NCBI GenBank assembly: GCA_035536185.1 | Contig: DATLOM010000018.1 | Coordinates: 135,865 to 199,864 of the forward strand | DNA from: Acidimicrobiales bacterium | GTDB lineage: Bacteria; Actinomycetota; Acidimicrobiia; Acidimicrobiales; GCA-2861595 | DNA: 64,000 nt | Reading direction: 5' to 3' | Shown here: positions 4,414 to 58,746 of the stretch, piece by piece | How positions within the stretch are numbered: the first letter of the stretch is position 1 | Layout of the letters: each line of letters starts with the position of its first letter | Notes under the pieces: generated by a model | What the model was told of the DNA's origin: nothing | Databases searched by the model: none | Seen by the model: the letters and a program-made list of their open reading frames with translations, nothing else | Made by a program: the position numbers and the translations under genes

Positions 4414-4486
4414 CAGGGCAGGAGGGAGTCGAACCCCCAACCGCCGGTTTTGGAGACCGGTGCTCTGCCAGTTGAGCTACTGCCCT
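4414..4486 (-). tRNA. trpT: tRNA-Trp (anticodon CCA)
   Basis: The minus strand folds by hand into a cloverleaf: AGGGCAG-TA-GCTC..GAGC-A-CCGGT-CTCCAAA-ACCGG-CGGTT-GGGGG-TTCGACT-CCCTC-CTGCCCT-G. No CCA is encoded. Confidence 0.85.
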
Positions 4487-5734: not shown

Positions 5735-5808
5735 TAGCGGCGGTCGGATTCGAACCGACGACAACACGATTATGAGCCGTGTGCTCTAACCAACTGAGCT
5801 ACGCCGCC
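5735..5808 (-). tRNA. tRNA-Met (anticodon CAT; elongator-type acceptor stem, and a lysidine-modified tRNA-Ile is not excluded)
   Basis: Hand-folded cloverleaf: GGCGGCG-TA-GCTC-AGTTGGTTA-GAGC-A-CACGG-CTCATAA-TCGTG-TTGTC-GTCGG-TTCGAAT-CCGAC-CGCCGCT-A. Confidence 0.8.
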
Positions 5809-5812
5809 GCGG

Positions 5813-5885
5813 AGCCCTCTGTGGGAATTGAACCCACGACACCAGCCTTACCATGGCTGTGCTCTACCGACTGAGCTAAGAGGGC
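5813..5885 (-). tRNA. tRNA-Thr (anticodon GGT)
   Basis: Hand-folded cloverleaf: GCCCTCT-TA-GCTC-AGTCGGTA-GAGC-A-CAGCC-ATGGTAA-GGCTG-GTGTC-GTGGG-TTCAATT-CCCAC-AGAGGGC-T. Confidence 0.85.
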
Positions 5886-26453: not shown

Positions 26454-26538
<85 letters not shown>

Positions 26539-43736: not shown

Positions 43737-45185
43737 GTGACACTGGCGACCAGAGCGAAAAGACAATCACCCGGCTTTCGCTGGAACCCCCCCTTCCGGC
43801 GGGCGGCGGGTGTGGTCGAGGTGGACTTCGAGACGCCACCGAGGGCGCGGGCACGGTCGGGACAGCGGCTTGCCGTCGTTCGGCTGCTCCCGGTCCTGTT
43901 GGACTCGGCCTGCCTGGCCGTTGCGTGGCTGGCCGTCGTCGCCGTGCTGGGAACGCCGAGCTCGATGGAGACGGCGTCGTTCACCGGTTTCGCCATCGCC
44001 TCGATGATCGTCGCCGGCCTCATCCACGCCTTCATGGGGCTGTACGCCGCAGGTCCCGCCGCCCTGGGCATCATCGACGTCACCAACGTCGTACGCGCCT
44101 CGCTGGGCTGGGGCACCCTCGCCGCCGGCGCCGCGTTCCTGATCGAGCCGCCCATCCCGCAGGCATGGGTGGCCCTGTCCTGCCTCTTCGGCTGCGTGCT
44201 CGTCGCCGCCACCAGGCGGGCCCTGTGGCACTGGTGCCCCGACCACGGCAAGAGCCTGTACGGCCGCCCTTCACCGGCCGATCCGGACGTTCGCCTGGGG
44301 TACGACATGGGCCGCCTCCGGAAGCGCTACATGGTGATCGCGGCCATGGGAGGACGGCGGCAGCGTTGCCAGGAGGTGCTCAAGCGGGGCGTCGACCTCG
44401 TCCTGACGCCCGTGATCATCGCCTTCACGTTGCCGGTCATGGCTGTGGCCGCGCTCGTGATCCTCGTGAGCGAGGGCCGGCCCATCCTGTTCCGCCAGCG
44501 CAGGGTCGGGCGCAACGGGGTCCCGTTCACCATCTTCAAGTTCCGCACGATGGTGCCGGATGCCGAGAAGCAGCTGATCGACCTGCGCGAGCTCAACGAG
44601 CGGGACGGTCCCCTGTTCAAGCTGACCCACGATCCGAGGGTCACCCGTACCGGCCGGCTCCTCCGAGAATCGAGCATCGACGAGCTGCCCCAGCTGTTCA
44701 ACGTCCTCGTCGGGACCATGAGCCTCGTCGGGCCCCGGCCGGCGCTGGCGGACGAGACCGAGCTGTTCGAAGCGGACCTGCTGCGCCGGCACCACCTTCG
44801 CCCCGGGATCACCGGGCTCTGGCAGGTGCGCTCGCGGGACGACGCTTCCTTCGAGTCCTACCGGTACCTCGACCTCTGCTACCTGGAGAACTGGTCCGTC
44901 CTGACCGACATGGTCATCCTCTTCGCCACTGTGCCCGCCGTCCTCCGCCGTGGCTGGAGCCTCCTCCTGCGGGCGGCACCGGGCAACTCGTTCTCGGCAG
45001 GACGGCGCCTCATGGTCAGGCTCGGCCGTCGCCCGCAGGATGACGGTGGCGTCCTTGCTCCGGCCGGAGCGTCTCTCTTCCCCGCCGCCACCGCTTCAGC
45101 ACCGGGGGTGCGCGAGGTGATCCTGAGCTCGAGCCTGGACGTGGCCCTTCCTATGAACGAGGCGGGGCTCAGCCAAGGACGGTGA
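43737..45185 (+). CDS. Polyprenyl-phosphate sugar phosphotransferase (WbaP / Bac_transf-type priming enzyme)
   Basis: It has N-terminal transmembrane segments. It shows [54 protein letters not shown] and [10 protein letters not shown]. Confidence 0.85.
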
Positions 45186-47109
45186 CGGCGACGACGGGGC
45201 TGGGCGGCGGGTTGCTGCCGAGGGAGCCGTCGAAAGGCTTGTCGCTGAACACGAAGGCACCGCCGTCGGCCGCCACCAGCAGGTAGCCGTTGCCGTAGCT
45301 GACCATCCCGCTGACCGGCTTGTTCAGGCGGAGGTCGCCGAGCGAGCCCCTGAACGGGGCACTGAAGGCGAACACACCTCCGTCGGAGGCCACCATGTAG
45401 TAGCCGTCACCGTCGGGGTCGGGTACGAGCGACTGGACCGGGGCGTTCAGGCGCTTGCCGCCCATCGACCCGTGGAACGCGGCGGCGCCGAAGGCGAAGG
45501 TGCCCCCGTCGGAAGCGACCATGTAGTAGCCGTCACCGCGGGAGGTGGTGACCGAGTCCCGGATCGGCCCGTTCAGCGGCTTTCCCGCCATGTCGCCGAA
45601 GTGGGTCGCGTCGCCAAAGGTGAGCACCCGGCCTTTGGTGGTGAACATCCAGTAGCCGTTGCCGCTCCTGGTCCTCGACAGCGACGTGACGGACTCGCCG
45701 GCAGAGAGGGGCGTGGCATTTCCGTGCCAACGGGCGGTGCCGAACGCGAAGACCCGGCCGGCGGTGTCGACGACCCAGTACCCGTCCCCCCCGCTGGTGG
45801 CCTCGATGTCCACCGCGTTGGCATCCCTAACCGGGGCGTTGCCAAGGTAGGGGGCGGCGCCGAAGGCGTAGACGGCACCCTTCTGAGCCACCATCCAGTA
45901 GCCCGACCGGCCCGAAGAGGGCCGGGCGCCGATGGATCCCCCGGAGAGCAGTGCGGGCTCGCCGAACGGCGGTGCCAGCGCCACCCGGGGGGTGCCGCCG
46001 CCACCGATGCTGCCGGGGCCGTTGTTCGTGACGTGGTGGAGCTGGTCGAAGAGGCGGTTCATGTCCCGGTTCCAGGCGGTGTCGGACCAGCCTGAGTTCG
46101 AATAGGTCGACATGTTGATGCCGGCGGCGGCCATCTCGGCCTTGACGCCGTGCTCGACGTTGAGCAGGTTCTGGCCCCAGCCGGTGTCGAACCCGGAGTT
46201 GTCCACGACGTAGGAGCCGTAGTTCTGCCACGCCTCGGCCAGCTTGCGGGCGGGGCCGGTCTCCAGACCGAGGGAGTTGATGTCGACCCAGCCCGGGATG
46301 GAGAGCAGCGATCCCATCTTGAGGATCGGGGTGTAGCCGCGGGCGTTGACGCCGTAGTTCTGTCCGGTGTTGTTCGAGTCGGCGGCGTAGGCCGGCCACT
46401 GGTAGGCGTTGCGGTCCGCTTCACGGGTGCCCCACCGGCTCATGTCGACGGTCAACTTGGTGACGTGGCGGATCGGGGCGACACCGGTCAGCTCCCCTCG
46501 GCGGATGCTGCCGCCGACGCCGCTCAGACCGGAGCCGCCGTGGCCGCCGAAGAACGACGACGGCCGGCCGTTGCCGTAGAGGTCGAGGGTGCTGCGAAGG
46601 CCGTCGCCGGTGAGGCTGGCCGGGCCTCCGGCGTCGCACCGGGACAGGTAGTTGAACTCCCGGATGGTCCGCCCGTCGGCCAGCAGGGCTCCGCCGGCCA
46701 GGTTGGGCATCTTGCCCTCCCAGCTCCCGTCACCGGGGGCCACCACGTAGTCATCGGGGATGGGAAGGGAGACGCCGCTGCTGGCGTCGCCACTCTGGTG
46801 GCAACGGGCCGGCCAGGCGTGGGTGTGCACCGGCCGCAGCGGGCTGGACGGCGCCATGACGATCGGGTTGGAGTCGGTTCCGTACCCGTTTGGCGGCTGG
46901 AAGAAGTTCGGATCGGCGAAGGTCGCCCCCGAGCCCACGGGCATGTTCCAGATGCTGTCGGATGAGAACGGCCAGGCGTAGGGGTTCCGGGCGGTGGGAT
47001 CGGCCGCCGCTGCGGTCGGGGAGAGGCTCAGCCCGACGAGGCCGGAGATGAGGGTGAGGGCGGCGGCGAGCAGCGCGATGCCGGCATGCCGGCGGGGGGG
47101 CGATTGCAT
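45169..47109 (-). CDS. Secreted protein: uncharacterised ~370-aa domain (paralogue 1) plus six C-terminal ~41-aa beta-propeller-like repeats
   Basis: It has a signal peptide and the conserved block NPYAWPFSSDSIWNMPVGSGATF...GGGGTPRVALAPP. The repeats have the form (D/N)GY(W/Y)xVxxDGGxFAFGxAxFxGS. Confidence 0.7.
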   Translation of the reverse strand: MQSPPRRHAGIALLAAALTLISGLVGLSLSPTAAAADPTARNPYAWPFSSDSIWNMPVGSGATFADPNFFQPPNGYGTDSNPIVMAPSSPLRPVHTHAWPARCHQSGDASSGVSLPIPDDYVVAPGDGSWEGKMPNLAGGALLADGRTIREFNYLSRCDAGGPASLTGDGLRSTLDLYGNGRPSSFFGGHGGSGLSGVGGSIRRGELTGVAPIRHVTKLTVDMSRWGTREADRNAYQWPAYAADSNNTGQNYGVNARGYTPILKMGSLLSIPGWVDINSLGLETGPARKLAEAWQNYGSYVVDNSGFDTGWGQNLLNVEHGVKAEMAAAGINMSTYSNSGWSDTAWNRDMNRLFDQLHHVTNNGPGSIGGGGTPRVALAPPFGEPALLSGGSIGARPSSGRSGYWMVAQKGAVYAFGAAPYLGNAPVRDANAVDIEATSGGDGYWVVDTAGRVFAFGTARWHGNATPLSAGESVTSLSRTRSGNGYWMFTTKGRVLTFGDATHFGDMAGKPLNGPIRDSVTTSRGDGYYMVASDGGTFAFGAAAFHGSMGGKRLNAPVQSLVPDPDGDGYYMVASDGGVFAFSAPFRGSLGDLRLNKPVSGMVSYGNGYLLVAADGGAFVFSDKPFDGSLGSNPPPSPVVAVTVLG

Positions 47110-47133
47110 GGTCTTGGCTCCAGCGGGACCAGG

Positions 47134-47220
47134 ACCGGTCGGTTTCGGTAGTCCGGCTAGGTCAATGACCCCCGTGACTTTGCGCCTCCGCCTCGCGACG
47201 GATTTGCCGGTTCGACCGAT
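47134..47220 (-). ncRNA. Candidate c-di-GMP-I (GEMM-I) riboswitch aptamer, copy A
   Basis: The minus strand reads AUCGGUCGAACCGGCAAAUCCGUC-GCGA-GGCGGAGGCGCAAAGUCACGGGGGUCAUUGACCUAGCCGGACUACCGAAACCGACCGGU. It contains GGCAAA, a GNRA-capped hairpin, CGCAAAG, a second hairpin, and an 8-bp closing helix. It ends 24 nt upstream of ATG 47109. Confidence 0.6.
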
Positions 47221-47308
47221 CTAACGGACGTTTCTTCAGCCTTGATCGACAGGTGCAGCGAGGGGCTTTAGCGGGCGATCCCGGACGTGGTTCGTCCATC
47301 GGAGGTGT

Positions 47309-48985
47309 TCATCGGCTCGACTGCTTCTTGAGCCTGGGCGCCTTCGTGGTCGTGGTGGTGGCCGGCATCGTGGTCGTGGTCGTGGTCGTCGTCGTGGCGA
47401 TCGTCGGAATCGTCGTGGTCGTGGTCGTGGTCGTGGTGGTGGTCGTCACCACCGCGTCCGCTCGGGTGAAGCCGGCCTCGGCGTAGAAAACGTTCCCGTT
47501 GGTCAGGGTCATCCGGGCACCGATCCGGTGGGTGCCCAGCGACAGTTGCCTCAGCGGGGTCGCCAGACTGGTGCTCTGCTCGAAGTCGTAAGGCGTGGCC
47601 GCCTCCGATCGGGTATCGACGCCGTCGAGCGTGAAGCTCACCGCGGTTACGCCCGGATCGTTCACGAAGACATAGGTCTGGCTGTCGACGGCGGTGTCCC
47701 GGAGGGCTCGCCCGTTGCTGCGGTCGGCGTTGTCGCTGACCCTGATCAGGTCGACCATGTCGACGGGAGCAGTGGTTGTCGGAGCCGGCGTGGTCGTCGT
47801 GGTCGTGGTCACGTCCGGTGCCGGGCTCGACGCTGTGGCGAACGGCGGCGCCAGGGCCACCCGGGGGGTGCCGCCGCCGCCCACGGTGGCCGCGCTGTTG
47901 TTGGTGACGTGGCGGAGCTGGTCGAAGAGGCGGTTCATGTCCCGGTTCCAGGCCGTGTTGGCCCAACCCGAGCTCGCGTAGGTCGACATGTCGATGCCGG
48001 CGGCGGCCATCTCGGCCTTGACGCCGTGCTCGACGTTCAGCAGGTTCTGCCCCCAGCCGGTGTCGAAGCCGGAGTTGTCCACGATGTAGGAGCCGTAGTC
48101 CTGCCAGGCCTGGGCCAGCTTGCGGGCCGGTCCGGTCTCCAGGCCGATGGCGTTGACATCCACCCAACCCGGGATGGACAGCAGCGACCCCATCTTGAGG
48201 ATCGGGGTGTAGCCGCTGGCGTTGACGCCGTAGGTCTGGCCGGTGTTCTCGGAGTCGGCGGCATAGGCGGGCCACTGGTAGGCGTTGCGGCCCCCTTCAC
48301 GGGTGCCCCACCGGCTCATGTCGACGGTCAACTTGGTGGCGTGGCGGATCGGCTCGGCACCGGTGAGCTCACCCCGGCGGATGCTGCCCCCGACCCCGCT
48401 CAGCCCTGAGCCGCCGTGGCCGCCGAAGAACGAGGACGGCCGGCCGTTGCCGTAGAGGTCGAGGGTGCTGCGCAGCCCGTCGCCCGTGAGGCTGATCGGA
48501 CCTCCGGCGCTGCAGCGGGAGAGGTAGTTGAACTCACGGATGGTGCGCCCGTCGCCCAGCAGGATCCCACCCGCCAGGTTGGGCATGTTGCCCTCCCAGC
48601 TGCCGTCGCCGGGGGCCACGATGTAGCCGTCGGGGATCGGGAGTGACACTCCGCTGTAGGTGTCGCCACTCTGGTAACAGCGGGCCGGCCAGGCGTGGGT
48701 GTGGACCGGCCGCAGCGGGCTGGACGGCGCCATGACGATCGGGTTCGAGTCGGTGCCGTACCCGTTGGGCGGCTGGAAGAAGTTCGGGTCCGAGAAGGTC
48801 GCTCCCGAACCGACCGGCATGTTCCAGATGCTGTCGGATGAGAACGGCCAGGTGTACGGGTTGCGACTGGTAGCCTCGGCGGCAGCTCCCGTCTGGGAGA
48901 GGTTCAACCCGACCAGCCCCGAAGCAAGGGTGAGGAGGGCAGCGAACACCGGAACGCCCGAACGGCGGCGGGTGGGCGATTGCAT
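47309..48985 (-). CDS. Secreted protein: the same ~370-aa domain (paralogue 2), then a poly-Thr linker, a ~110-aa domain and a poly-Thr tail
   Basis: It has a signal peptide and the block NPYTWPFSSDSIWNMPVGSGATF...GGGGTPRVALAPP, followed by TTTTTTTPAPTTT. The C-terminus is TTTTTTTTTTTTIPTIATTTTTTTTTMPATTTTTKAPRLKKQSSR. Confidence 0.7.
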   Translation of the reverse strand: MQSPTRRRSGVPVFAALLTLASGLVGLNLSQTGAAAEATSRNPYTWPFSSDSIWNMPVGSGATFSDPNFFQPPNGYGTDSNPIVMAPSSPLRPVHTHAWPARCYQSGDTYSGVSLPIPDGYIVAPGDGSWEGNMPNLAGGILLGDGRTIREFNYLSRCSAGGPISLTGDGLRSTLDLYGNGRPSSFFGGHGGSGLSGVGGSIRRGELTGAEPIRHATKLTVDMSRWGTREGGRNAYQWPAYAADSENTGQTYGVNASGYTPILKMGSLLSIPGWVDVNAIGLETGPARKLAQAWQDYGSYIVDNSGFDTGWGQNLLNVEHGVKAEMAAAGIDMSTYASSGWANTAWNRDMNRLFDQLRHVTNNSAATVGGGGTPRVALAPPFATASSPAPDVTTTTTTTPAPTTTAPVDMVDLIRVSDNADRSNGRALRDTAVDSQTYVFVNDPGVTAVSFTLDGVDTRSEAATPYDFEQSTSLATPLRQLSLGTHRIGARMTLTNGNVFYAEAGFTRADAVVTTTTTTTTTTTTIPTIATTTTTTTTTMPATTTTTKAPRLKKQSSR

Positions 48986-49009
48986 GGTCTTGGCTCCAAA
49001 GGGACCAGG

Positions 49010-49096
49010 ACCGGTCGGTTTCGGTAGTCCGGCTGGGTACGAGACCTCCGTGACTTTGCGTCTCCGCCTCGCGACGGATTTGCCGGTTCGACCGAT
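49010..49096 (-). ncRNA. Candidate c-di-GMP-I (GEMM-I) riboswitch aptamer, copy B
   Basis: It is near-identical to copy A. It has GACGCAAAG instead of GGCGCAAAG and a different apical sequence in hairpin 2. It sits at the same 24-nt distance from ATG 48985. Confidence 0.6.
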
Positions 49097-49202
49097 CTAA
49101 GCGGGCGGGACCTCGTCTCCATCGGCCGGCGCTCGGTGGTGCTTGAGCGCGACGTTCCCGCTGAGCCAACGTGCGTAAGGGCCCCCGTAGCGGAACGGAA
49201 GA

Positions 49203-50705
49203 TCAGGGATGCGTCGCGGGCTCCGGCACCGATGTCGTGGCGATACGCACCTGCCACGCCGGATTGCGGCTGAGGGCCCATGCAAGGGGCACGCACAGGT
49301 ACCACTGCACCACCGGCTGGGCCAGCAGGTTCTCCGACGAGCACTGGACGACGAACGCGGCAAATGCGGCGGCGGCGCCGACGACCACGCCTCGATTGAT
49401 CCCCGCCGGCAGGGCCCGCAGCGCCCGCCTCAGCTCGAAGGTCACGGCCAGGAAGAAGGCCACAAGAGCGAGTAGCCCGGCGGCCCCGGTCTCGACGACT
49501 GCCTGGACGAAAACGTTGTGGGGAGGAAGCTTGTATGCGGTACGGCGCTCCACGACGTTGAGCCCGATACCTGTGATCGGCCCGTCCGACGTGAAGGGCA
49601 GTACGTCCTGCCAGTACTGGATCCGCCATGACAACGAGTCGGGGTCGCCGATCACCGAACCGGAGTCGCCGCCGAGGTCAGCCAGGCGGCTGGCCGCCGA
49701 CGGAACGGCCAGCAGGACGACGGCAGTGCCCGCGATCACGAGCCAGATGAGGCGCCGGTCCTGGAGCCATCCGATGAGCATCACGCCGACGAAGGCCGCC
49801 GCCCAAGCTCCCCTGGCATAGGTGAAGAACAGCAGGAACCCCGACGCGCCGGCCACGGTCACGATCCCGACGCGGACGAAGCGGCGGACGTGGGGCAACA
49901 GAGCCACCGCCACCGGGAAGAGCATGGTGAGATAGGCGGCGAACACGTTGGGATGGACGAAGGTCCCCTGAATGCGGCCGACGTCGAGGGCCGGACCGTA
50001 GAGCGGGACCTCGGGGACGTTGCCTTGAAGCTGAAGGGCGGCCGTGAAGGCGGGAACGATCATCGAAGCGAAGGTGGCCACGAGGAGACCGGGGAGCCGA
50101 TCGGGCCGGTCGCGCAGCGCCTGCTCGAGGACGATGAGCATGACCGCGGTCGACACCACCCTCAGGGCCGCCTGGAAGCTGACAGTCGGGGCGTCCGAGG
50201 TGACCGAGCTCAGGACGCAGACCCCGGCCAGCGCCACGAAGGCGAGGCTCGAGCGGGAGGAGACGATGGGCAGGCCCGAACGCCAGCGCCGGTAGAGCCA
50301 GACGGCCGAAGCACACAGGATCACCATGCCGAGGACCGTCGACGGTTCGGCGGGGAGAGCAGCCTCTCCGGACTTGAAGTAGTCGAGCCCCGGCCGGCTG
50401 GCGAAGACGATCACGACCGCGGCCCAGAACCGGCTGGCCGCCCAGCGGACGGTCGTGTACCCGACGACCACAGCCAGTATGCCGAAGAGGGGCAGCCCCA
50501 GGCCCGGACGGGAGGCCGAGACGGCGCCGGTGACGACGGACGCGACCACGACGGCTACGGCGAGCATTGGGAGGAACAGACCTGACCGCTCGGCCGCTGC
50601 AGGCGAAGACCCGTTGTCACTCCGGGAGTCGCTATGGCCGCCCGCACCACCGCTTCGGGAGGCTCTGAACGCCTGCGTGGTGGGCGCCCCGCCTGTCGGG
50701 CTCAC
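49203..50705 (-). CDS. O-antigen ligase / Wzy-like polymerase family membrane protein (start uncertain)
   Basis: It has about 10 or more hydrophobic segments. The motif FLLFFTYARGAWAAAFVGV is typical of Wzy_C proteins. Confidence 0.6.
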   Translation of the reverse strand: MSPTGGAPTTQAFRASRSGGAGGHSDSRSDNGSSPAAAERSGLFLPMLAVAVVVASVVTGAVSASRPGLGLPLFGILAVVVGYTTVRWAASRFWAAVVIVFASRPGLDYFKSGEAALPAEPSTVLGMVILCASAVWLYRRWRSGLPIVSSRSSLAFVALAGVCVLSSVTSDAPTVSFQAALRVVSTAVMLIVLEQALRDRPDRLPGLLVATFASMIVPAFTAALQLQGNVPEVPLYGPALDVGRIQGTFVHPNVFAAYLTMLFPVAVALLPHVRRFVRVGIVTVAGASGFLLFFTYARGAWAAAFVGVMLIGWLQDRRLIWLVIAGTAVVLLAVPSAASRLADLGGDSGSVIGDPDSLSWRIQYWQDVLPFTSDGPITGIGLNVVERRTAYKLPPHNVFVQAVVETGAAGLLALVAFFLAVTFELRRALRALPAGINRGVVVGAAAAFAAFVVQCSSENLLAQPVVQWYLCVPLAWALSRNPAWQVRIATTSVPEPATHP

Positions 50706-50748
50706 AGGAAAACGGCCCGGTCAGCGGGCGGCGTCGGCCGCCGACCCA

Positions 50749-51735
50749 TCACGCCTCATCCGCGACCCTCACCGGCTGAGAAGCGACGTCACGGCCCCCG
50801 GGGGGCCACCCGACCACATCGGCCTGCCTTGCCTGGACAGCTTCCGCCCGGCGGCGCTTGCGCCAGTCCAGGAGGGCGAAACCGCCGAGGGTGCCCACCA
50901 CTGTCACCAGCGTCGATCCGACCACCCCCCGAGCGATGGCGGACGTTCGGGAGACGGGCGAAGCTCCCCCGTCCTTCACCAACCCCGGAGTCTCCACGGC
51001 CGCAAGCCTGGCCGTAGCCAGCTGCCGGTCGCTCTCGGCTTTGGCGATGGTCTCCTCTGACCGGTCGAGACGGTTGAGCAGCACGTCACGCCGGGAGCGC
51101 AGGGCGCTCATCTCGGCCAGCTGCGCGACGACCGCGTCCGCCTGGGCACTCGTGGCCGGGTCCGCCCGCAGCGCGGCGAGCCTCCGCCTCTGGTTCTCGT
51201 ACTCGGCGTCGAGGTCGGCGAAGCCGGTGGACTCGTCCAGCGCCGCCAGCTCGTCACGCGTCGCTTGCAGATTGCTGGAAGCCTCCTTCACCTGCGAGTC
51301 CGCGAGGGCCCGGTCCTGCTCGGCCAGAGCTCTGAGGGTGGCCAGGGCCGCCTCTCTCGGAACTCGAGCGGCGATCTCGGGGTCCTCGGAACCTTTGAAG
51401 ACGATGGAGACGATTGTGCCCTGGTTCGCCCGGGAGGAGACGGTGCCGAGCGCTATGTCGAGGGCGGGCACCCCTGTCGACTTGGAAACGGCGTCGGTCG
51501 TCTCGGAAAAGGTGAGGCTGGACTGGAAGGTCGACACGAACGGGTCCATCTCGATCCCGGCCCGCCCGGGATAGAGCTTGGAGAGGAAGACCACCGCCCT
51601 GCCCTCGTACAAGGGAGGAGGGCTGACGATCGTCCCCACGGTCAGCCCGATGCTCAAGGCCGTGACGGCAACGAGGAGAACCCGGCGACGAACCGTGAGG
51701 TTCACCAGAGGAGGGGCTGGAGCCGTGGGGATCAT
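50749..51735 (-). CDS. Wzz-like polysaccharide co-polymerase (chain-length determinant)
   Basis: It has N- and C-terminal transmembrane segments flanking a long coiled-coil region (ALADSQVKEASSNLQATRDELAALD...). There is no kinase domain. Confidence 0.55.
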   Translation of the reverse strand: MIPTAPAPPLVNLTVRRRVLLVAVTALSIGLTVGTIVSPPPLYEGRAVVFLSKLYPGRAGIEMDPFVSTFQSSLTFSETTDAVSKSTGVPALDIALGTVSSRANQGTIVSIVFKGSEDPEIAARVPREAALATLRALAEQDRALADSQVKEASSNLQATRDELAALDESTGFADLDAEYENQRRRLAALRADPATSAQADAVVAQLAEMSALRSRRDVLLNRLDRSEETIAKAESDRQLATARLAAVETPGLVKDGGASPVSRTSAIARGVVGSTLVTVVGTLGGFALLDWRKRRRAEAVQARQADVVGWPPGGRDVASQPVRVADEA

Positions 51736-52005
51736 CGCCGCTCGACCTCGTCCGCTTGGCTCACGTTGTGCACCTGCTCCAACCTTTCAGCACCACCTGG
51801 CGAAGAGCTCGTGCGCCGTCACGCTGCGGCTGACGAACGCGGTACGTCTACCGCCATCAAGCAAGGTACCAGACCTCCCAGTCATCTTTTCTTCGCCTCG
51901 CCGCGCAAAACCGCAAGGTTGTCCTCGAGCCTCGAACCTCGGAGGGCACCACTAGGGTTGCCTGGTGGCTCGGGATCGGCATCAACGGAGGCGGAAGCCG
52001 CGCTG

Positions 52006-53109
52006 ATGCGGATCGCGCTGGTGGGCACCCGCGGCGTGCCGGCCCGCTATGGAGGGTTCGAAACCGCCGCCGAGGAGATCGGGCGGCGCCTGGTCGAGCG
52101 GGGTCACGAGGTGGTCGTCTACTGCCGCAACGCGGATCCGGAACAAGTCGAGTACCTGGGAATGGAGCTCGTTCACCTGCGGTCGCTGCGGCTGAAGTTC
52201 AGTGAGACCCTCACTCATACCGCGATGTCGCTGATGCATCTTCGGAGCCGGCCGGTGGACGTCGCCGTCGTCTTCAATGCCGCGAACGCCCCACTTCTAC
52301 CCATAGTTCGCCGGCGCGGGATCCCGGTGGCGGTTCACGTCGACGGCCTCGAGTCGTTGCGAGCCAAATGGGGCGGGATCGGCCGTGCCTATTACAAGAA
52401 GGCCGAGAAGGTGGCCGTCAGGTGGGCCGACGAGCTGATCGCCGATGCTCGAGGGATCCAGGAGCACTACGCCCTCACCTACGGCGTGTCCAGCCGGCTC
52501 ATCGCTTACGGCGCGCCCCTCCTGTACGACCGTCCCGATCATCGGCTGGAAGAGCTGGGCCTGAGGAGCGCCAGGTACCACCTAGTCGTCGCCCGCTTCG
52601 AGCCGGAGAACTGCATCGACGTCATAGTCGACGGCTACCAGCAGAGTGAGGCGGAGCTCCCGCTGATCGTCGTCGGGTCGGCCCCGTACGGGAACCGGTA
52701 CCGGCAGCGGGTGGAATCACGGGCGGCGAACGACGAGAGGGTCCGCCTCCTCGGGCCGGTCTGGGACCAGGAGCTACTCGACCAGCTGTACGCCCACGCC
52801 TCCAGCTACGTGCATGGTCATTCGGTCGGAGGTACGAACCCGTCGCTGCTGCGAGCCATGGGTGCCGGCGCTCCCGTCATCGCCATCGACGTCCGGTTCA
52901 CGCGGGAGGTGCTCGAGGACACCGGCGTGTTCTTCCGGGGCCCATCCGACCTCGCCGGCCTGATCAGCGGTGCGGAGGCCGATCCGAAGGCCGCGAGAGA
53001 ACGCGGCCGGCGAGGCCGGGAACGCGCCGCCTCGGCCTACGTGTGGGAGGACGTGGTGGACGACTACGAGCGGATGTGCCAGCGGCTGCACGAGGATGCG
53101 CAGAGCTAG
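52006..53109 (+). CDS. GT4-family glycosyltransferase with a DUF1972-type N-terminus
   Basis: Trimmed to ATG 52006. It shows MRIALVGTRGVPARYGGFETAAEEIGRRLVERGHEVVVYC and the C-terminal motif GHSVGGTNPSLLRAMGAG. Confidence 0.8.
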   Translation: MRIALVGTRGVPARYGGFETAAEEIGRRLVERGHEVVVYCRNADPEQVEYLGMELVHLRSLRLKFSETLTHTAMSLMHLRSRPVDVAVVFNAANAPLLPIVRRRGIPVAVHVDGLESLRAKWGGIGRAYYKKAEKVAVRWADELIADARGIQEHYALTYGVSSRLIAYGAPLLYDRPDHRLEELGLRSARYHLVVARFEPENCIDVIVDGYQQSEAELPLIVVGSAPYGNRYRQRVESRAANDERVRLLGPVWDQELLDQLYAHASSYVHGHSVGGTNPSLLRAMGAGAPVIAIDVRFTREVLEDTGVFFRGPSDLAGLISGAEADPKAARERGRRGRERAASAYVWEDVVDDYERMCQRLHEDAQS

Positions 53110-53124
53110 CCAAGCCACTCCGGC

Positions 53125-54366
53125 TCAGGCAGCCGCGGTCACCAACTCGGCCGCCTCGGCGTAGAGCCGGTCGAGGCCCTGTAGGTGCCCCGGGATCGAG
53201 TAGTCCCGCTCTACCTTGACTCGTCCGGCTCGGCCCATCGCCGCGGCCCGGTCGGTGTCGGAAAGAAGAGCGTTGAGCGCGGTAGCCAGGGCGCGAGGGT
53301 CCTCGGGCGGAACGAGAAGACCGTCCACCCCGGGTTCGATCAGCTCCCGGACGCCGCCGCGATCCGAGCCGACCACGGCGACACCGGACGCGAAAGCCTC
53401 GAGAATGATCATCGGCTGGTTCTCGTAGAACCGGGACGGGATGGCAAGCACGGCCGCAGCATCGAGATGCTGTTGCAGTTCGACCTTGGAGAGGCGACCG
53501 AGAAAGCGGACCCGCCCGGGGGCCACCCGCGAGGCCAGCTCCTCCAGCTTCTCCTGCTCGGGCCCCTCCCCGGCGATGTCCAGGATCGTGGAAGCATCCA
53601 TCCACTGGAGCGCTTCGACGACGAGATCGACGCCCTTCTCAACGGAGAGCCGTCCGGCGAAGAGAAGCCCCTTCTTGAGGGTGGCGGTTCGCCCCCGCCC
53701 TGATGCCTGGGCGAAATGTGGCAGCACGCGCAGTTTGTCGGGGAACACGCCGGCTTCCGTCATCTTCGCCGCAATGAACCGGCTCGGGCAGATGAACAGC
53801 TGGATGGGCGCGTAGGCCCTGAAGTAGGTGTGAAGGGTGAGCTCGCCGGCGAGGAGGGCGCTTTCGACGAGCGACCCGTTCTTGCACCGCCGCAGGACGG
53901 CGTTCTGGAACTTGCCGCCGAGGCATGCCTCGCACACCTTGCCCTTGTCGAGGAAGTGGTAGGTGGGGCAGGCGAGCTTGAAATCGTGAAGGGTCATGAC
54001 ACTGGGCACACGGTGCTGGGCCAACGGTCGCAGGATCGACGGCGAGAGCTGGTGGTGGATGATGTGGAGGTGGGCCACATCCGGCTTGAACTCCCGGATC
54101 ACCTTTTCCATCCCGGCTGCCGACGACGAGCTCCATACCATCCGGGCGGCCGCTTTCAACTTTCCGGCCACACCGGCAGGAGCCGGATTGAGCTCCAAGT
54201 AGGTGGGGAAATGCTGTTCCAGGGGCGCCGGCTCGTTGTCCGGGTGCTGCATCGAGAAGAAGGTCACGTCGTGACCGGCCTGTCGTTGCAGTGCCGCCAG
54301 CTCCAGCATGTACGCCTCCGAGCCGCCCCTGCGGTGGAGGAACTTGTTCACGTGGAGTATCCGCAT
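53125..54366 (-). CDS. GT4-family glycosyltransferase
   Basis: It shows MRILHVNKFLHRRGGSEAYM, FAGRLSVEKG, and an E-x7-E region (ENQPMIILEAFASG). Confidence 0.8.
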   Translation of the reverse strand: MRILHVNKFLHRRGGSEAYMLELAALQRQAGHDVTFFSMQHPDNEPAPLEQHFPTYLELNPAPAGVAGKLKAAARMVWSSSSAAGMEKVIREFKPDVAHLHIIHHQLSPSILRPLAQHRVPSVMTLHDFKLACPTYHFLDKGKVCEACLGGKFQNAVLRRCKNGSLVESALLAGELTLHTYFRAYAPIQLFICPSRFIAAKMTEAGVFPDKLRVLPHFAQASGRGRTATLKKGLLFAGRLSVEKGVDLVVEALQWMDASTILDIAGEGPEQEKLEELASRVAPGRVRFLGRLSKVELQQHLDAAAVLAIPSRFYENQPMIILEAFASGVAVVGSDRGGVRELIEPGVDGLLVPPEDPRALATALNALLSDTDRAAAMGRAGRVKVERDYSIPGHLQGLDRLYAEAAELVTAAA

Positions 54367-54429
54367 CAGTTGGGCGAACGTCCTCTCGAGGCGTCAAGGC
54401 CGATACTACAGCCGCAGAGGCGGCCGTCC

Positions 54430-55386
54430 TCAGCCGAGGCGCACCTCGCGGGACGCCCGGTTGTCCCGGCGCTCGACCATCTGTGCGGGCGCCACCGCGC
54501 ACATCAGGGCCCGGAGTGTCACGCTTCCCGCCGGGTCGAGGCCGCCCCGCACGCTCCGATCCTGCAGCGCGGCCCGCAGCATCGCCCACCGGGCGGCACC
54601 GGCTCGACCGACCCGGGCATGGGCATATCCTTCGAGCAGCCGGACCCGCGCCCGACGCCGCCGAAGTGCCTGCTCGACAATAGGGCGCTCCTCCGCGGTC
54701 ACCTGATCGAGAAGCTCTTCCAGGATGACGATGTCCCAGGCCAGGTAGCGCTCGCCGGACGAGAGGCTGTCCGGTCGGTTCCGGAAGGCGACCGTGCAGG
54801 TGCCCGGCACGGCCACCCTGCACCCGTTGCGGATCATGCGTATCCAGAGGTCCCAGTCCTCGTCGCAGCGCAGATCGCGGAAACCGCCGACGGCGTCGTA
54901 GCTCGCCCGCTCCATGACAACGTTGGAGAAGAGAAAGTTGCGGCGCAGGATCTCCCGGGGTTGATCCTGCTCTGCCGGAATGGCGGCGATCAGGTTCCAG
55001 GGGGTCTTCGCGACCCGACGCTCCGGCACCCAGCGGAAGCCGGCGGCTGCGACTATTCCGCCATGCCGGGCGTGACATTCCAGCATGACCTCGAGGTGGT
55101 CGGGCAACAAGTAGTCATCGGCGTCGAGCAGGGCCAGGAGCTCGCCTGAGGACCGGGCGATACCATCCCGGCGCGCCACTCCGAGACCTTCGTTCTCGGG
55201 CTTGGTCACCAGTACGAGTGGGAGGTGGTCCGACCACCGCCTCGCGATCTCCCCCGTCTCGTCGGTGGAGCCGTCGTCGATGACGACCACCTCGTCCGCC
55301 GGACGCGACTGCGCCGCAACGGAAGCCAGGGCGGCATCGAGGAAGCGACCGGCATTGAACGCAGGAATGATCATCGACACAGTCAT
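54430..55386 (-). CDS. GT2-family glycosyltransferase (paralogue of 58758-59771)
   Basis: Trimmed to ATG 55386. It shows MIIPAFNAGRFLDAALASV, VVVIDDGSTDET, LLDADD and EDWDLWIRM. Confidence 0.8.
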   Translation of the reverse strand: MTVSMIIPAFNAGRFLDAALASVAAQSRPADEVVVIDDGSTDETGEIARRWSDHLPLVLVTKPENEGLGVARRDGIARSSGELLALLDADDYLLPDHLEVMLECHARHGGIVAAAGFRWVPERRVAKTPWNLIAAIPAEQDQPREILRRNFLFSNVVMERASYDAVGGFRDLRCDEDWDLWIRMIRNGCRVAVPGTCTVAFRNRPDSLSSGERYLAWDIVILEELLDQVTAEERPIVEQALRRRRARVRLLEGYAHARVGRAGAARWAMLRAALQDRSVRGGLDPAGSVTLRALMCAVAPAQMVERRDNRASREVRLG

Positions 55387-55583
55387 CTGTCCCGCCTTCT
55401 TCGAGAGACGGCGAATGCTAGATGCCGTCCCCGACAGTCCTCCCGACCAGGATCGTGCCGCCGCTACCGCTACCGTGCCCCATCGTGGCGGAAACCCAGA
55501 CGGTCGACACCCTGGAGCGCCAGGAGCGCCCGGAGACTCCGAGCTCAGGCGGCCGGGAGCGGGTACCGCGGCGGGAGCCGGTG

Positions 55584-56870
55584 ATGATCTACATGCTGGC
55601 CTGTCTCGTCCTGCTGGCCGGTGGCTTGTGGGCGGCGGCCCACCACCGTGAGCAAGAGCAGCCCTCGCCGGTGCCGGCGCCGGCGCCGGAGCGGCAAGGC
55701 TCTGCGGCCGAGGGGCCCGGAGCGGTATCGCCTCCCGCCATGGCCGAGTCACCGGAGACTCCGCCCTCGGTCGTCACTCAGGCGCCGAAGCCGAAGCCAC
55801 CTCCCACACCCCCGACAACCGCTCCGATCCGGTCGAGGAACGCCCAGCAGTGGCCCTTCTCCTCCGACAGCATCTGGAACATGCCGATCGGTTCAGGTGC
55901 GACCTTTGCCGACCCGAACTTCTTCCAGCCGCCCAACGGTTACGGCTCCGACGCCAACCCGATCGTCATGTCGCCCTCCAGCCCGCTGCGCCCGATCCAC
56001 ACCCACGCCTGGCCCGCCCGCTGCCACAAGAGCGGCGACGCCTACAGCGGTGTCTCGGTCCCCATCCCCGACGACTATGTGGTGGCCCCCGACGACGGCA
56101 ACTGGGATGGCAAGACGCCCAACCTCTCGGGGGGCGTGCTGCTGGCTGACGGGAGGACCGTCCGGGAGCTCAACTACTTCTCCCGCTGTGAAGCCGGTGG
56201 GCCGGCGAGCGTCACCACCGACGGGATGCGCAGCACCCACGACCTCTACGGCAACGGGCGCCCGGATTCGTTCCTCGGGGGCCACGGCGGATCGGGGCTG
56301 AGTGGTGTCGGCGGCAGCATCCGCCGGGGGGAGCTGATCGGTGCCGCCCCGATCCGCCACGTCACCAAGCTGACCGTCGACATGAGCCGGTGGGGCACCC
56401 GTGAAGGGGGCCGCAACGCCCATCAGTGGCCCGCCTACGTCGCCGACTCCGACACCACCAGCCAGACCTACGGGCTCAACGCCCGCGGCTACACGCCGAT
56501 CCTCAAGATGGGATCACTGCTGGCCATCCCTGGGCCGGTCGACCTCGACTCGCTCGGCCTGGAGACCCGTCCCGCCCGCAAGCTGGCCGAGGCCTGGCAG
56601 AACTACGGCTCCTACGTCGTGGACAACTCCGGGTTCGACACCGGCTGGGGCCAGAACCTGCTCAACGTCGAGCACGGCGTCAAGGCCGAGATGGCCGCCG
56701 CCGGCATCAACATGTCGACCTATTCGAGCTCAGGCTGGTCCGACACCGCCTGGAACCGGGACATGAACCGCCTCTTCGACCAGCTCCACCACGTCACCAA
56801 CAACGGCCCCGGCAGCATCGGTGGCGGCGGCACCCCCCGGGTGGCGCTGGCACCGCCGTTGGTCCCGTAG
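55584..56870 (+). CDS. Membrane-anchored protein carrying the same ~370-aa domain (paralogue 3)
   Basis: The likely start is ATG 55584 (MIYMLACLVLLAGGLWAAA, a transmembrane anchor). A Pro-rich linker follows, then QQWPFSSDSIWNMPIGSGATF...GGGGTPRVALAPP. Confidence 0.7.
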   Translation: MIYMLACLVLLAGGLWAAAHHREQEQPSPVPAPAPERQGSAAEGPGAVSPPAMAESPETPPSVVTQAPKPKPPPTPPTTAPIRSRNAQQWPFSSDSIWNMPIGSGATFADPNFFQPPNGYGSDANPIVMSPSSPLRPIHTHAWPARCHKSGDAYSGVSVPIPDDYVVAPDDGNWDGKTPNLSGGVLLADGRTVRELNYFSRCEAGGPASVTTDGMRSTHDLYGNGRPDSFLGGHGGSGLSGVGGSIRRGELIGAAPIRHVTKLTVDMSRWGTREGGRNAHQWPAYVADSDTTSQTYGLNARGYTPILKMGSLLAIPGPVDLDSLGLETRPARKLAEAWQNYGSYVVDNSGFDTGWGQNLLNVEHGVKAEMAAAGINMSTYSSSGWSDTAWNRDMNRLFDQLHHVTNNGPGSIGGGGTPRVALAPPLVP

Positions 56871-57030
56871 CTGGCCCGTCTTCGACAGAAAAAACCCTCA
56901 ACCTGATTCATCGAGCAGGCGGAAGGGTTATATACTAGACGTTGCGTGGTGTTCGGACCGCGTAGAGTGATGGGATTGGCGCCCCGCCCGGGGCCGCTCA
57001 GCGTGCGCTTGAGCCAAGGAAGGGGCCGAC

Positions 57031-58746
57031 ATGGCGAAACCGAGAGTTGCAGCTATCGGCATCGACGCAGCCGAGTGGGCCGCAGTGGAGTCGCTGGTCG
57101 AGGAGGGCGCGCTGCCCAACATCGAGAAGCATCTGGATGCCAGCTCCATGCTCGAGATGCACGGAGATGCTCCTTACCGGGCCGAGGCGAGCTGGACCGA
57201 GTTCCTGACGGGCCGGAAGGCGGCGGACAACAGGTACTGGTCGACGGCGCAGTTCGACCCGGGTACCTACGAGATGTGGGAGGTGGGCGCCTACCGAGGA
57301 GTCCCCTTCTACGGGCGGCCCGACATCAAGTCCATCGTGTTCGACACGCCCCACGCCCACCTGGCGCCCGAGGCTCGGGGAGTGCAGATCACCGGATGGG
57401 GCGCCCACTCTCCGCAGTTCCCCACGGCCTCGTCACCCCGGGCTCTCGTCGCCGAAGTCGACAGGCGCTTCGGCGTTCACCGCGCGATCAAATCGGACAG
57501 CCTCGTCGGGTGGCACAACGACACGTACGGCCGCAACCTGACCGAAGCCATGCTCGACGGCCTCGACAAGAAAGCCGACATCAGCGCCTGGCTGCTCGAT
57601 GAGTACCCCGACTGGGACCTGTTCGTGACGGTGCTGTCCGAGACCCATGTGGCCGGCCACCAGTTCCTGCACGGGGTGCTCGAAAAGCATCCCCTGCACG
57701 GTTCTCGGTTCTCGCCTGCCGCCGACGCGCACTTCCGGGCCACCTACAGCAAGGTCGACGAGGTGATCGGCCGGCTGACCGCCAGCCTGGGTGACGACAC
57801 CACGGTCGTGCTGTTCGCCGTGCACGGTATGGCGTGGAACGGTGCCGACACGGCCTGCGTCTGGTTGCCCGAGCTCCTCCACCGGATGAGCTTCGGGAAG
57901 CCGTTCATCGACTTTCCCGCCTGGACGCCTGGAATGCCCCTGGTCGACCTCGAGCCGGAGATGGCGCCGGTGGAGTACCTGTTGAGGTACACAACCGAGC
58001 CGGTGGGCAGCATGTACAAGTCGAAGCCGTCCGCTCTCAAGAACCGGATCGCCTGGGGGATGAGGCGGATGACGCCACCCGGCCCGCTGACAACCATCGA
58101 AGGGATGTGGAGGCGTGCCTCAGGGGTGAAGTCACGCCATGTGTGGTGGGAGATGGATGTCCGCGAGCCGGGGTCGCCCACCACGGACCTCGCCATGGCC
58201 AGCGCCCGCCAGCCCTGCGACTATCACGTCGCCTCGTGGTTCTGCGCCCACTGGCCGAAGATGAGGTACTTCGTACTCCCGTCATTCTCCGACACCCACA
58301 TCCGGATCAACCTGAAGGGCCGGGAGCAGAACGGCCTTGTCGACCCCCGCGAGTACGGCAAGGTGCTCGACGAGGTCGAGGAGATGCTGCGGGGGCTCAC
58401 GAATGCCCGCACCGGTACACCCGTCGTGGCCGAGACGTACCGCGTGAGGGCTGACGACCCCATGAACCCCGACGGGCCTACGGCGGACCTGGTCATCACC
58501 TTCGCCGACGTCGCCGATGTCGTCCACTCCCCCGATGTCGGCGTGGTCGGGCCGTGCCCCTTCCTCCGCTCGGGGGAGCACACCAACAACGGGTGGGCCG
58601 CCTTCCGCACCCCCAGTGGCGCCTCCGGAGCGTTGGGAGAGGGCCGCCCGCTCGACCTCGCGCCCACCCTGCTCGACCTCTTGGGACGGCCGCAGTCACC
58701 TCTCAACACCGGTCGCTCGGTCGCGCCGCTACTCCAGAGTCGCTGA
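57031..58746 (+). CDS. Alkaline-phosphatase-superfamily (type I phosphodiesterase / nucleotide pyrophosphatase-like) protein
   Basis: It shows VAAIGIDAA at the N-terminus, plus SETHVAGHQF and FAVHGM. The family assignment is tentative. Confidence 0.45.
   Translation: MAKPRVAAIGIDAAEWAAVESLVEEGALPNIEKHLDASSMLEMHGDAPYRAEASWTEFLTGRKAADNRYWSTAQFDPGTYEMWEVGAYRGVPFYGRPDIKSIVFDTPHAHLAPEARGVQITGWGAHSPQFPTASSPRALVAEVDRRFGVHRAIKSDSLVGWHNDTYGRNLTEAMLDGLDKKADISAWLLDEYPDWDLFVTVLSETHVAGHQFLHGVLEKHPLHGSRFSPAADAHFRATYSKVDEVIGRLTASLGDDTTVVLFAVHGMAWNGADTACVWLPELLHRMSFGKPFIDFPAWTPGMPLVDLEPEMAPVEYLLRYTTEPVGSMYKSKPSALKNRIAWGMRRMTPPGPLTTIEGMWRRASGVKSRHVWWEMDVREPGSPTTDLAMASARQPCDYHVASWFCAHWPKMRYFVLPSFSDTHIRINLKGREQNGLVDPREYGKVLDEVEEMLRGLTNARTGTPVVAETYRVRADDPMNPDGPTADLVITFADVADVVHSPDVGVVGPCPFLRSGEHTNNGWAAFRTPSGASGALGEGRPLDLAPTLLDLLGRPQSPLNTGRSVAPLLQSR

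Follow-up and report, generated by a model that had tools for sequence, protein, structure and literature searches.

Two leaders of the c-di-GMP-I riboswitch family precede tandem paralogous genes in an Acidimicrobiales exopolysaccharide cluster

Genes and leaders at the locus

The window, by which is meant the whole 64-kb stretch of Acidimicrobiales DNA that was analysed, contains a Wzy-type exopolysaccharide gene cluster. Three genes of this cluster, here called A, B and C, encode the same domain, and two of them are preceded by closely similar leaders. The features at the locus were as follows.

43737-58746: Wzy-type exopolysaccharide gene cluster, holding genes A, B and C
43737-45185: priming sugar transferase (Bac_transf), by family match
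45169-47109, minus strand: gene A, 646 aa (GenBank HVE45823.1), with the N-terminal domain of gene B and a different C-terminus
47110-47224, minus strand: leader A, the twin of leader B, before the ATG at 47109; its Rfam aptamer lies at 47144-47218 (55.4 bits)
47309-48985, minus strand: gene B, 558 aa, with a signal peptide, an uncharacterised domain of about 340 aa, Thr-rich linkers and a small C-terminal domain
48986-49100, minus strand: leader B, a 115-nt block conserved with leader A, with nine differences
49203-50705: Wzy_C polymerase/ligase, by family match, co-oriented with genes B and A
55584-56870, plus strand: paralogue C (HVE45830.1), with the same domain, an N-terminal membrane anchor and no riboswitch
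47831-48871 (minus strand), 45955-46995 (minus strand) and about 55860-56870 (plus strand): the domain of about 340 aa in genes B, A and C, respectively

Two GT4 glycosyltransferases and a type I phosphodiesterase-family gene also were present in the cluster. No family match was obtained for the cluster ORFs at 50749-51735 (minus strand) and 53716-55149 (plus strand), or for an ORF at 53639-55078 that overlaps the latter on the opposite strand.

Leader B extends from 3 nt before the outermost pair of its closing helix to the base preceding the start codon. Its minus-strand sequence, from 49100 to 48986, is UUAGAUCGGUCGAACCGGCAAAUCCGUCGCGAGGCGGAGACGCAAAGUCACGGAGGUCUCGUACCCAGCCGGACUACCGAAACCGACCGGUCCUGGUCCCUUUGGAGCCAAGACC, and the AUG at 48985 comes next. 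An earlier note on this DNA had described the leaders upstream of ATG 48985 and ATG 47109 as nearly identical, and alignment bore this out: the two were co-linear without gaps over exactly 115 nt and matched at 106 of these positions (92.2%). The conserved block had been drawn as far as 49096; its actual limit was 49100, and 5' of this point (position -115) the homology ended abruptly and the sequences could not be aligned. The parts that were said to be shared were all found, namely the closing helix (GAUCGGUCG / CGACCGGUC), GGCAAA, the GCGA-capped hairpin, the ACCGAA tail and the hairpin over GGAG.

Of the nine differences, one was in a junction, four were in the loop of the second aptamer hairpin (P3) and two in the loop of the platform hairpin; the remaining two were the partners in a single non-Watson-Crick pair. 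As had been reported, the junction string was GACGCAAAG in copy B and GGCGCAAAG in copy A, and the apex of hairpin 2 differed between the copies (GGAGGUCUCGUACCCAG in B, GGGGGUCAUUGACCUAG in A). The loop of the sequestering hairpin, for which three changed nucleotides had been counted, differed at two (CUUU versus CGCU), and apart from these two loop bases the expression platforms of the copies were identical.

The aptamer and its expression platform

The whole window was scanned against Rfam 15 at gathering thresholds. The matches consisted of four tRNAs and two members of RF01051 (c-di-GMP-I/GEMM-I), both of the latter on the minus strand. The tRNA genes also all lie on the minus strand (4414-4486, 5735-5808, 5813-5885 and 26457-26538); two of them are adjacent, 4 nt apart.

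Both aptamers covered RF01051 model positions 1-87 of 87, and both leaders, for which the earlier note had proposed an Rfam search, exceeded the gathering score of 35. The view that leader B is a structured, riboswitch-like RNA resembling Vc2 was borne out by this end-to-end match to the covariance model, at 53.0 bits (E = 1.6e-7 for the 64-kb window); as a calibration, four metagenome GEMM-I loci scored 53.6-59.7 bits with the same Rfam tool. RF01051 was the top-scoring family in clan CL00126, so the curated sequence variants of the clan fit no better. The third paralogue, which had been said to have no comparable leader, indeed had none at the gathering threshold or at E <= 10, and no degenerate remnant of a riboswitch was found upstream of it.

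Aptamer B lies in the sense orientation in the 5' UTR, its 3' end 34 nt upstream of the AUG. A full-model family match above threshold identifies the leader as a genuine regulatory RNA of a known kind. Judged on sequence, leader B very probably contains a functional c-di-GMP-I riboswitch that regulates gene B (probability about 0.8). Its elements, all on the minus strand, were assigned as follows.

49020-49094: c-di-GMP-I (GEMM-I) aptamer of leader B, by RF01051 match
49089-49097: 5' strand of P1, GAUCGGUCG, leader positions 4-12; read from the sequence, formed in constrained folds
49084: G aligned with Vc2 G20 (Rfam alignment column 11); G in both copies
49063-49078: first aptamer hairpin (P2 in Vc2 nomenclature), UCCGUC-GCGA-GGCGGA, from the Rfam alignment
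49060 and 49033: C of GAC and G of the AG bulge, an interhelical pair like Vc2 C44-G83, in both copies
49057: A aligned with Vc2 A47, the first A of GCAAAG, from the Rfam alignment
49026-49055: second aptamer hairpin (P3), AGUC-A-CGG-A-GGU / ACC-C-AG-CCG-GACU, from the Rfam alignment and pair counts
49023-49024: CC of the ACCGAA tail, from the Rfam alignment; one C is the equivalent of Vc2 C92, and which of the two depends on the Vc2 numbering that we assume
49009-49017: 3' strand of P1, CGACCGGUC, leader positions 84-92
48986-49012: sequestering hairpin, GGUC-C-UGGUCC-CUUU-GGA-G-CCA-A-GACC, from MFE folds
48994-48997: Shine-Dalgarno sequence GGAG, 8 nt before the AUG, read from the sequence

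P1 is a 9-bp closing helix, and GGUC, the last four bases of its 3' strand, is also the 5' base of the sequestering hairpin. P2 has a 6-bp stem and a GNRA-type tetraloop; in the pair counts described below it was 100% paired, with three pairs changed on both sides. P3 of leader B is short and has the conserved AG bulge; one of its pairs is G.U in copy A and an A.C mismatch here. This pair, at leader positions 54/66 (49047/49035 in copy B, 47171/47159 in copy A), is changed on both sides and is Watson-Crick in neither copy. A protonated A.C wobble is isosteric with G.U, and the pair may be a conserved non-canonical one. The GCGA tetraloop is present and the canonical receptor motif was not recognised in the short P3; docking of GCGA onto GG/CC pairs is conceivable. 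The conserved junction strings in the Rfam alignment were GGCAAA, GACGCAAAG (GGCGCAAAG in copy A), the AG bulge and ACCGAA.

With Vc2 (tfoY) and Vc1 (gbpA) of Vibrio cholerae, leader B shares P1, the GNRA-capped hairpin, the second hairpin with its AG bulge, the strings GGCAAA, GACGCAAAG and ACCGAA, the equivalents of G20, A47, C92 and C44-G83, and a location in the 5' UTR of a gene whose product is secreted or at the cell surface. It differs from them in its much shorter second hairpin (3-bp apical stem, 5-nt loop), in which the 11-nt tetraloop receptor was unrecognised, and in having a GCGA rather than a GAAA tetraloop. Its host, a MAG of the Acidimicrobiales (Actinomycetota), the uncharacterised family of the downstream gene and the presence of two near-identical copies ahead of tandem paralogues also set it apart.

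The sequestering hairpin covers the Shine-Dalgarno sequence, and its 3' end is the base preceding the AUG. No intrinsic terminator (a G+C-rich stem followed by a U-tract) was found in the leader. A promoter scan, which is uninformative for a high-GC actinobacterium, found nothing. Folding of the whole leader by MFE did not recover the aptamer and gave stabilities similar to those of shuffled sequences (z = -0.26, -0.47); it was dropped as a test because tertiary, ligand-stabilised folds are not captured by this method.

The mechanism that we propose is as follows. The aptamer, with its 9-bp P1, 6-bp GCGA-capped hairpin and short second hairpin with an AG bulge, would fold around c-di-GMP, and control would most likely be exerted at translation initiation, the hairpin directly past P1 burying GGAG. 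GGUC provides both the outer four pairs of P1 and the 5' base of this hairpin, and a ligand-stabilised P1 would be expected to weaken the sequestering hairpin and turn translation ON. The twin riboswitch would control gene A in the same manner. The lack of a U-tract terminator, together with a GGAG hairpin that shares four nucleotides with outer P1, favours translational control, which is the likely mode of action of leader B.

Energy calculations were made for the parts of this switch. The full sequestering hairpin alone had a free energy of -13.1 kcal/mol, and with GGUC taken by P1 this became -5.5 kcal/mol in copy B and -6.5 kcal/mol in copy A. The P1 duplex had an energy of -13.9 kcal/mol with 9 bp and -6.2 kcal/mol with 5 bp. 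For copy B the sums were -19.4 kcal/mol for the long P1 with the weak hairpin and -19.3 kcal/mol for the short P1 with the strong hairpin; the two states thus are balanced, as would be expected of a switch that is tipped by its ligand. When the aptamer was enforced, opening the ribosome binding site (RBS; the Shine-Dalgarno/AUG region) cost less in the ensemble calculation: 6.3 instead of 7.0 kcal/mol for copy B, and 6.5 instead of 8.1 kcal/mol for copy A. The effect on accessibility is small (0.7-1.6 kcal/mol). The ON direction is favoured weakly, because this effect is small, only the far end of P1 takes part in the overlap and the P3 3' strand can pair in other ways; on balance it appears somewhat the better bet.

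An OFF switch is a tenable if rather doubtful alternative. Here the ligand would lock the aptamer, the downstream hairpin would form undisturbed and the ribosome would be blocked; in the ligand-free state the 3' half of the aptamer would pair with the anti-Shine-Dalgarno strand and free the RBS, so that the secreted enzymes would be made when c-di-GMP falls, for example in matrix dispersal. Consistent with this view, CUAGCCGGACUACCG (the 3' strand of P3 together with the tail) was paired with the platform sequence GGUCCUGGUCCCGCUGG in the unconstrained MFE fold of copy A, and the full sequestering hairpin could form beside a ligand-bound aptamer whose P1 is 5 bp long, the two being sterically compatible and possibly stacked. 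Both ON and OFF members of the class are documented, Cd1 being an OFF switch (PMC4744006). Against it, the alternative folds kept both G residues of GGAG about 97% paired, and so offered no clear anti-sequestor, enforcing the aptamer lowered rather than raised the cost of opening the RBS, and the overlap of P1 with the hairpin favours ON.

It is improbable that the riboswitch acts on transcription, through Rho-dependent termination, or on mRNA stability, and not directly on ribosome binding. The wzy gene and genes B and A point the same way, and just 102 and 84 nt separate the leaders from the genes before them, which makes polarity effects conceivable, and a stem-loop without a U-tract (GGACGAACCACGUCC) lies past the gene B stop codon. 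However, the leader has no intrinsic terminator, and its conserved hairpin is placed precisely on the Shine-Dalgarno sequence and reaches to the AUG. The stem-loop (GGACG-AACCA-CGUCC; 47283-47297, minus strand), which directly follows the stop codon, might separate the B and A transcripts.

The expression platform distinguishes leader B from other riboswitches of the same aptamer class in Gram-positive bacteria, Cd1 of Clostridioides difficile and Bc1/Bc2 of the Bacillus cereus group, which control surface, adhesion or motility genes. The c-di-GMP-I riboswitches of the B. cereus group use intrinsic terminators, of which Bc1 has two (PMC11218506). Unlike Cd1 and Bc1/Bc2, which have intrinsic terminators, leader B has no U-tract terminator and its platform is the hairpin over the Shine-Dalgarno sequence.

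Predicted ligand and conservation of the leader

In Vc2, G20 contacts one guanine of the ligand and C92 pairs with the second (PMC4744006, PMC5888326), and the interhelical Watson-Crick pair C44-G83 has been described as universally conserved (PMC4744006). Equivalents of G20, A47, C92 and C44-G83 are all present in leader B, so that c-di-GMP is the predicted ligand of its aptamer. The 3'3'-cGAMP riboswitches of Geobacter (GEMM-Ib) share the fold and the Rfam clan of leader B. An A at the G20-equivalent position marks such cGAMP-sensing variants, whereas both copies in the window carry G, which argues for c-di-GMP over 3'3'-cGAMP.

Binding of another ligand, either 3'3'-cGAMP as in Geobacter GEMM-Ib or a different dinucleotide, is very unlikely. 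GEMM-I variants with altered specificity are known (Kellenberger 2015 and Nelson 2015, as cited in PMC10118264), and the short P3 and GCGA loop depart from the Vc2 arrangement; the identity of the G20-aligned base in both copies and the top score of RF01051 within its clan speak against it. In the ORFs of the 64-kb window, a search with a crude GG[DE]EF regular expression found no GGDEF gene.

The earlier note had rated the leader as merely about as well conserved as coding DNA. It was in fact better conserved: its identity of 92.2% compared with 87.4% overall for the DNA of genes A and B over 382 co-linear codons, and with 67% at four-fold degenerate sites, 32.7% of which differed. The first 120 nt of coding sequence next to the leaders were 72.5% identical. 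At the rate of the four-fold sites, 115 neutral bases should have accumulated about 38 differences, against the nine that were observed (P(<=9) = 2e-10). All nine avoided Watson-Crick pairs: they were at unpaired bases or in the one G.U / A.C pair (P = 1.3e-4; P = 0.008 when their placement was counted as five events). Furthermore, the limits of the block coincide with those of the RNA structure: its 5' end lies 3 nt outside the outermost P1 pair, and its 3' end is at the start codon.

A very recent duplication, with the coding regions equally identical, had been named as the explanation that would undo the case for a functional RNA. With synonymous sites 33% diverged, and flanking coding sequence at 72.5% identity against 92% for the leader, the leader is an island of conservation that recent duplication does not explain. 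A leader without function, merely carried along by a recent tandem duplication or by a gene-conversion tract, might be suggested by the adjacency of the two paralogues and the 95.7% identity attained by some 115-nt windows of the coding region. This alternative is already largely refuted by the 33% divergence of neutral sites, the far greater divergence of both flanks, the avoidance of Watson-Crick paired positions and the full-length, above-threshold match to a curated riboswitch family.

Related leaders were sought in other DNA. Rfam scans detected no riboswitch at the loci of the closest protein relatives (57-73% identity; L005, L006, L009 and L034-L036) or at four genome loci (L001-L004). 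A pattern scan of metagenome DNA with lineage-specific junction strings (CCGGCAAA...GRCGCAAAG...CTACCGAAAC) yielded 23 loci. All of them belonged to a different GEMM-I lineage, and none was related to leader B. This lineage, with 16 distinct sequences from the 23 loci, was used as an outgroup for pair counts only.

The alignment for the pair counts contained the two window copies and ten distinct metagenomic GEMM-I members, and it covered two junction pairs and both hairpins. Standard pairs made up 95.2% of the pair-by-sequence cells, compared with 29-48% when the 3' partners were slid by 1-3 columns. Compensatory changes on both sides were seen in 7 of the 19 aptamer pairs in comparison with the second GEMM-I lineage, and the observed covariation score was reached by none of 500 shuffles. 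At six of the seven covarying pairs the change distinguishes the window lineage from the other one (U-A versus C-G, C-G versus G-C and C-G versus A-U, for instance); as only two lineages were compared, the independent covariation events are few. As read from this alignment, the pattern is what the RF01051 family structure predicts.

The metagenomic loci (L011-L033; for example L016 7799-7880 and L033 9515-9594) form a separate, tightly conserved GEMM-I lineage of 23 loci. In these the ATG lies only 5 nt downstream of the aptamer and begins a conserved ORF that encodes about 186 aa and has an N-terminus like a signal peptide, and a stretch of about 80 nt past the ATG is conserved at the DNA level.

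The regulated proteins and their biological context

The N-terminal domains of proteins A and B were 86% identical over 382 aa. The Thr-rich linkers of gene B are encoded by ACGACC-type repeats. The C-terminal 260 aa or so of protein A (45169-45960, minus strand) had no Pfam match and contained about six GYW/YxVxxDGGxFxFG...G... repeats, which look like beta-propeller blades. The exact gene B product was absent from a collection of 15 billion proteins, in which A and C were both found; the source record may give gene B a different start or list it as a pseudogene.

The domain of about 340 aa had no match in Pfam, NCBIfam or PDB sequences. Its family comprised 4,051 representatives at 50% identity with E <= 0.001, of which 1,389 had E <= 1e-30; the best database match to the query domain (P0001) was paralogue C itself. 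An AlphaFold2 model of the domain, built from a 49-sequence alignment, had a pLDDT of 94.5 and a pTM of 0.93. A Foldseek search with this model gave no match in the PDB at E <= 0.001. Among predicted structures it matched phage proteins (E down to 3e-20, TM 0.69), one of them a minor tail protein of a Gordonia phage and another bearing a name that refers to parallel beta-helix repeats.

By tblastn, the domain was homologous to minor tail proteins in 36 Gordonia phage records, one of which had been annotated by its depositor as a glycosylhydrolase. Other homologues were fused to CBM6, CBM13-like, CBM60, dockerin or DUF4082 domains, and the closest ones lay in polysaccharide gene clusters, between glycosyltransferase, flippase, acetyltransferase and deacetylase genes. 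These findings point to a probable extracellular glycan-cleaving domain. Neither the homologous loci found nor paralogue C carried a riboswitch; in the data available, riboswitch control is therefore specific to the two secreted, C-terminally extended copies.

Riboswitches for c-di-GMP typically precede adhesion, biofilm, surface and motility genes (PMC11477304). As the class is known ahead of surface and biofilm genes, a copy before a gene for a secreted enzyme of a polysaccharide cluster is expected biology. A functional analogy is offered by Streptomyces rpfA, which encodes a cell-wall hydrolase and has a c-di-AMP (ydaO) riboswitch upstream (St-Onge et al. 2015, as cited in PMC10118264): in both cases an actinobacterial cyclic-dinucleotide riboswitch is associated with a secreted protein that is a glycan-cleaving enzyme or, here, a probable one, whereas the RNA fold, the ligand and the enzyme family are all different. 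As an RNA, leader B changes nothing that is known about its riboswitch class. Its unusual points are modest: the order to which the host belongs, a very short P3, the occurrence of two copies on tandem paralogues and a regulated family that is uncharacterised.

A broader evolutionary reading can be offered tentatively, and we consider it possible rather than probable. An ancestral membrane-anchored enzyme of a polysaccharide cluster, of the paralogue C type for which none of the relatives found had a riboswitch, would have been duplicated, and a secreted derivative would have captured a c-di-GMP riboswitch and then been duplicated again. The resulting pair would be translational ON switches that work by isoenergetic competition between P1 and the hairpin, and would control an undescribed polysaccharide-depolymerase fold that is shared with actinophage tail proteins.

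In the literature available to the analysis, no paper was found that combined Acidimicrobi*, c-di-GMP and riboswitch. Leader B and its twin add a clean, duplicated c-di-GMP-I example for the Acidimicrobiales, a poorly studied, uncultured actinobacterial order. The riboswitch marks the unmodelled family of the 340-aa domain, with about 4,000 representatives, as part of a c-di-GMP, biofilm and matrix regulon, and suggests as a hypothesis for the function of this domain the cleavage of exopolysaccharide or of an envelope glycan. The two riboswitches would tie secreted matrix-remodelling enzymes to the level of c-di-GMP, and the broader reading, if true, would provide the first handle on c-di-GMP-driven matrix remodelling in the Acidimicrobiia.
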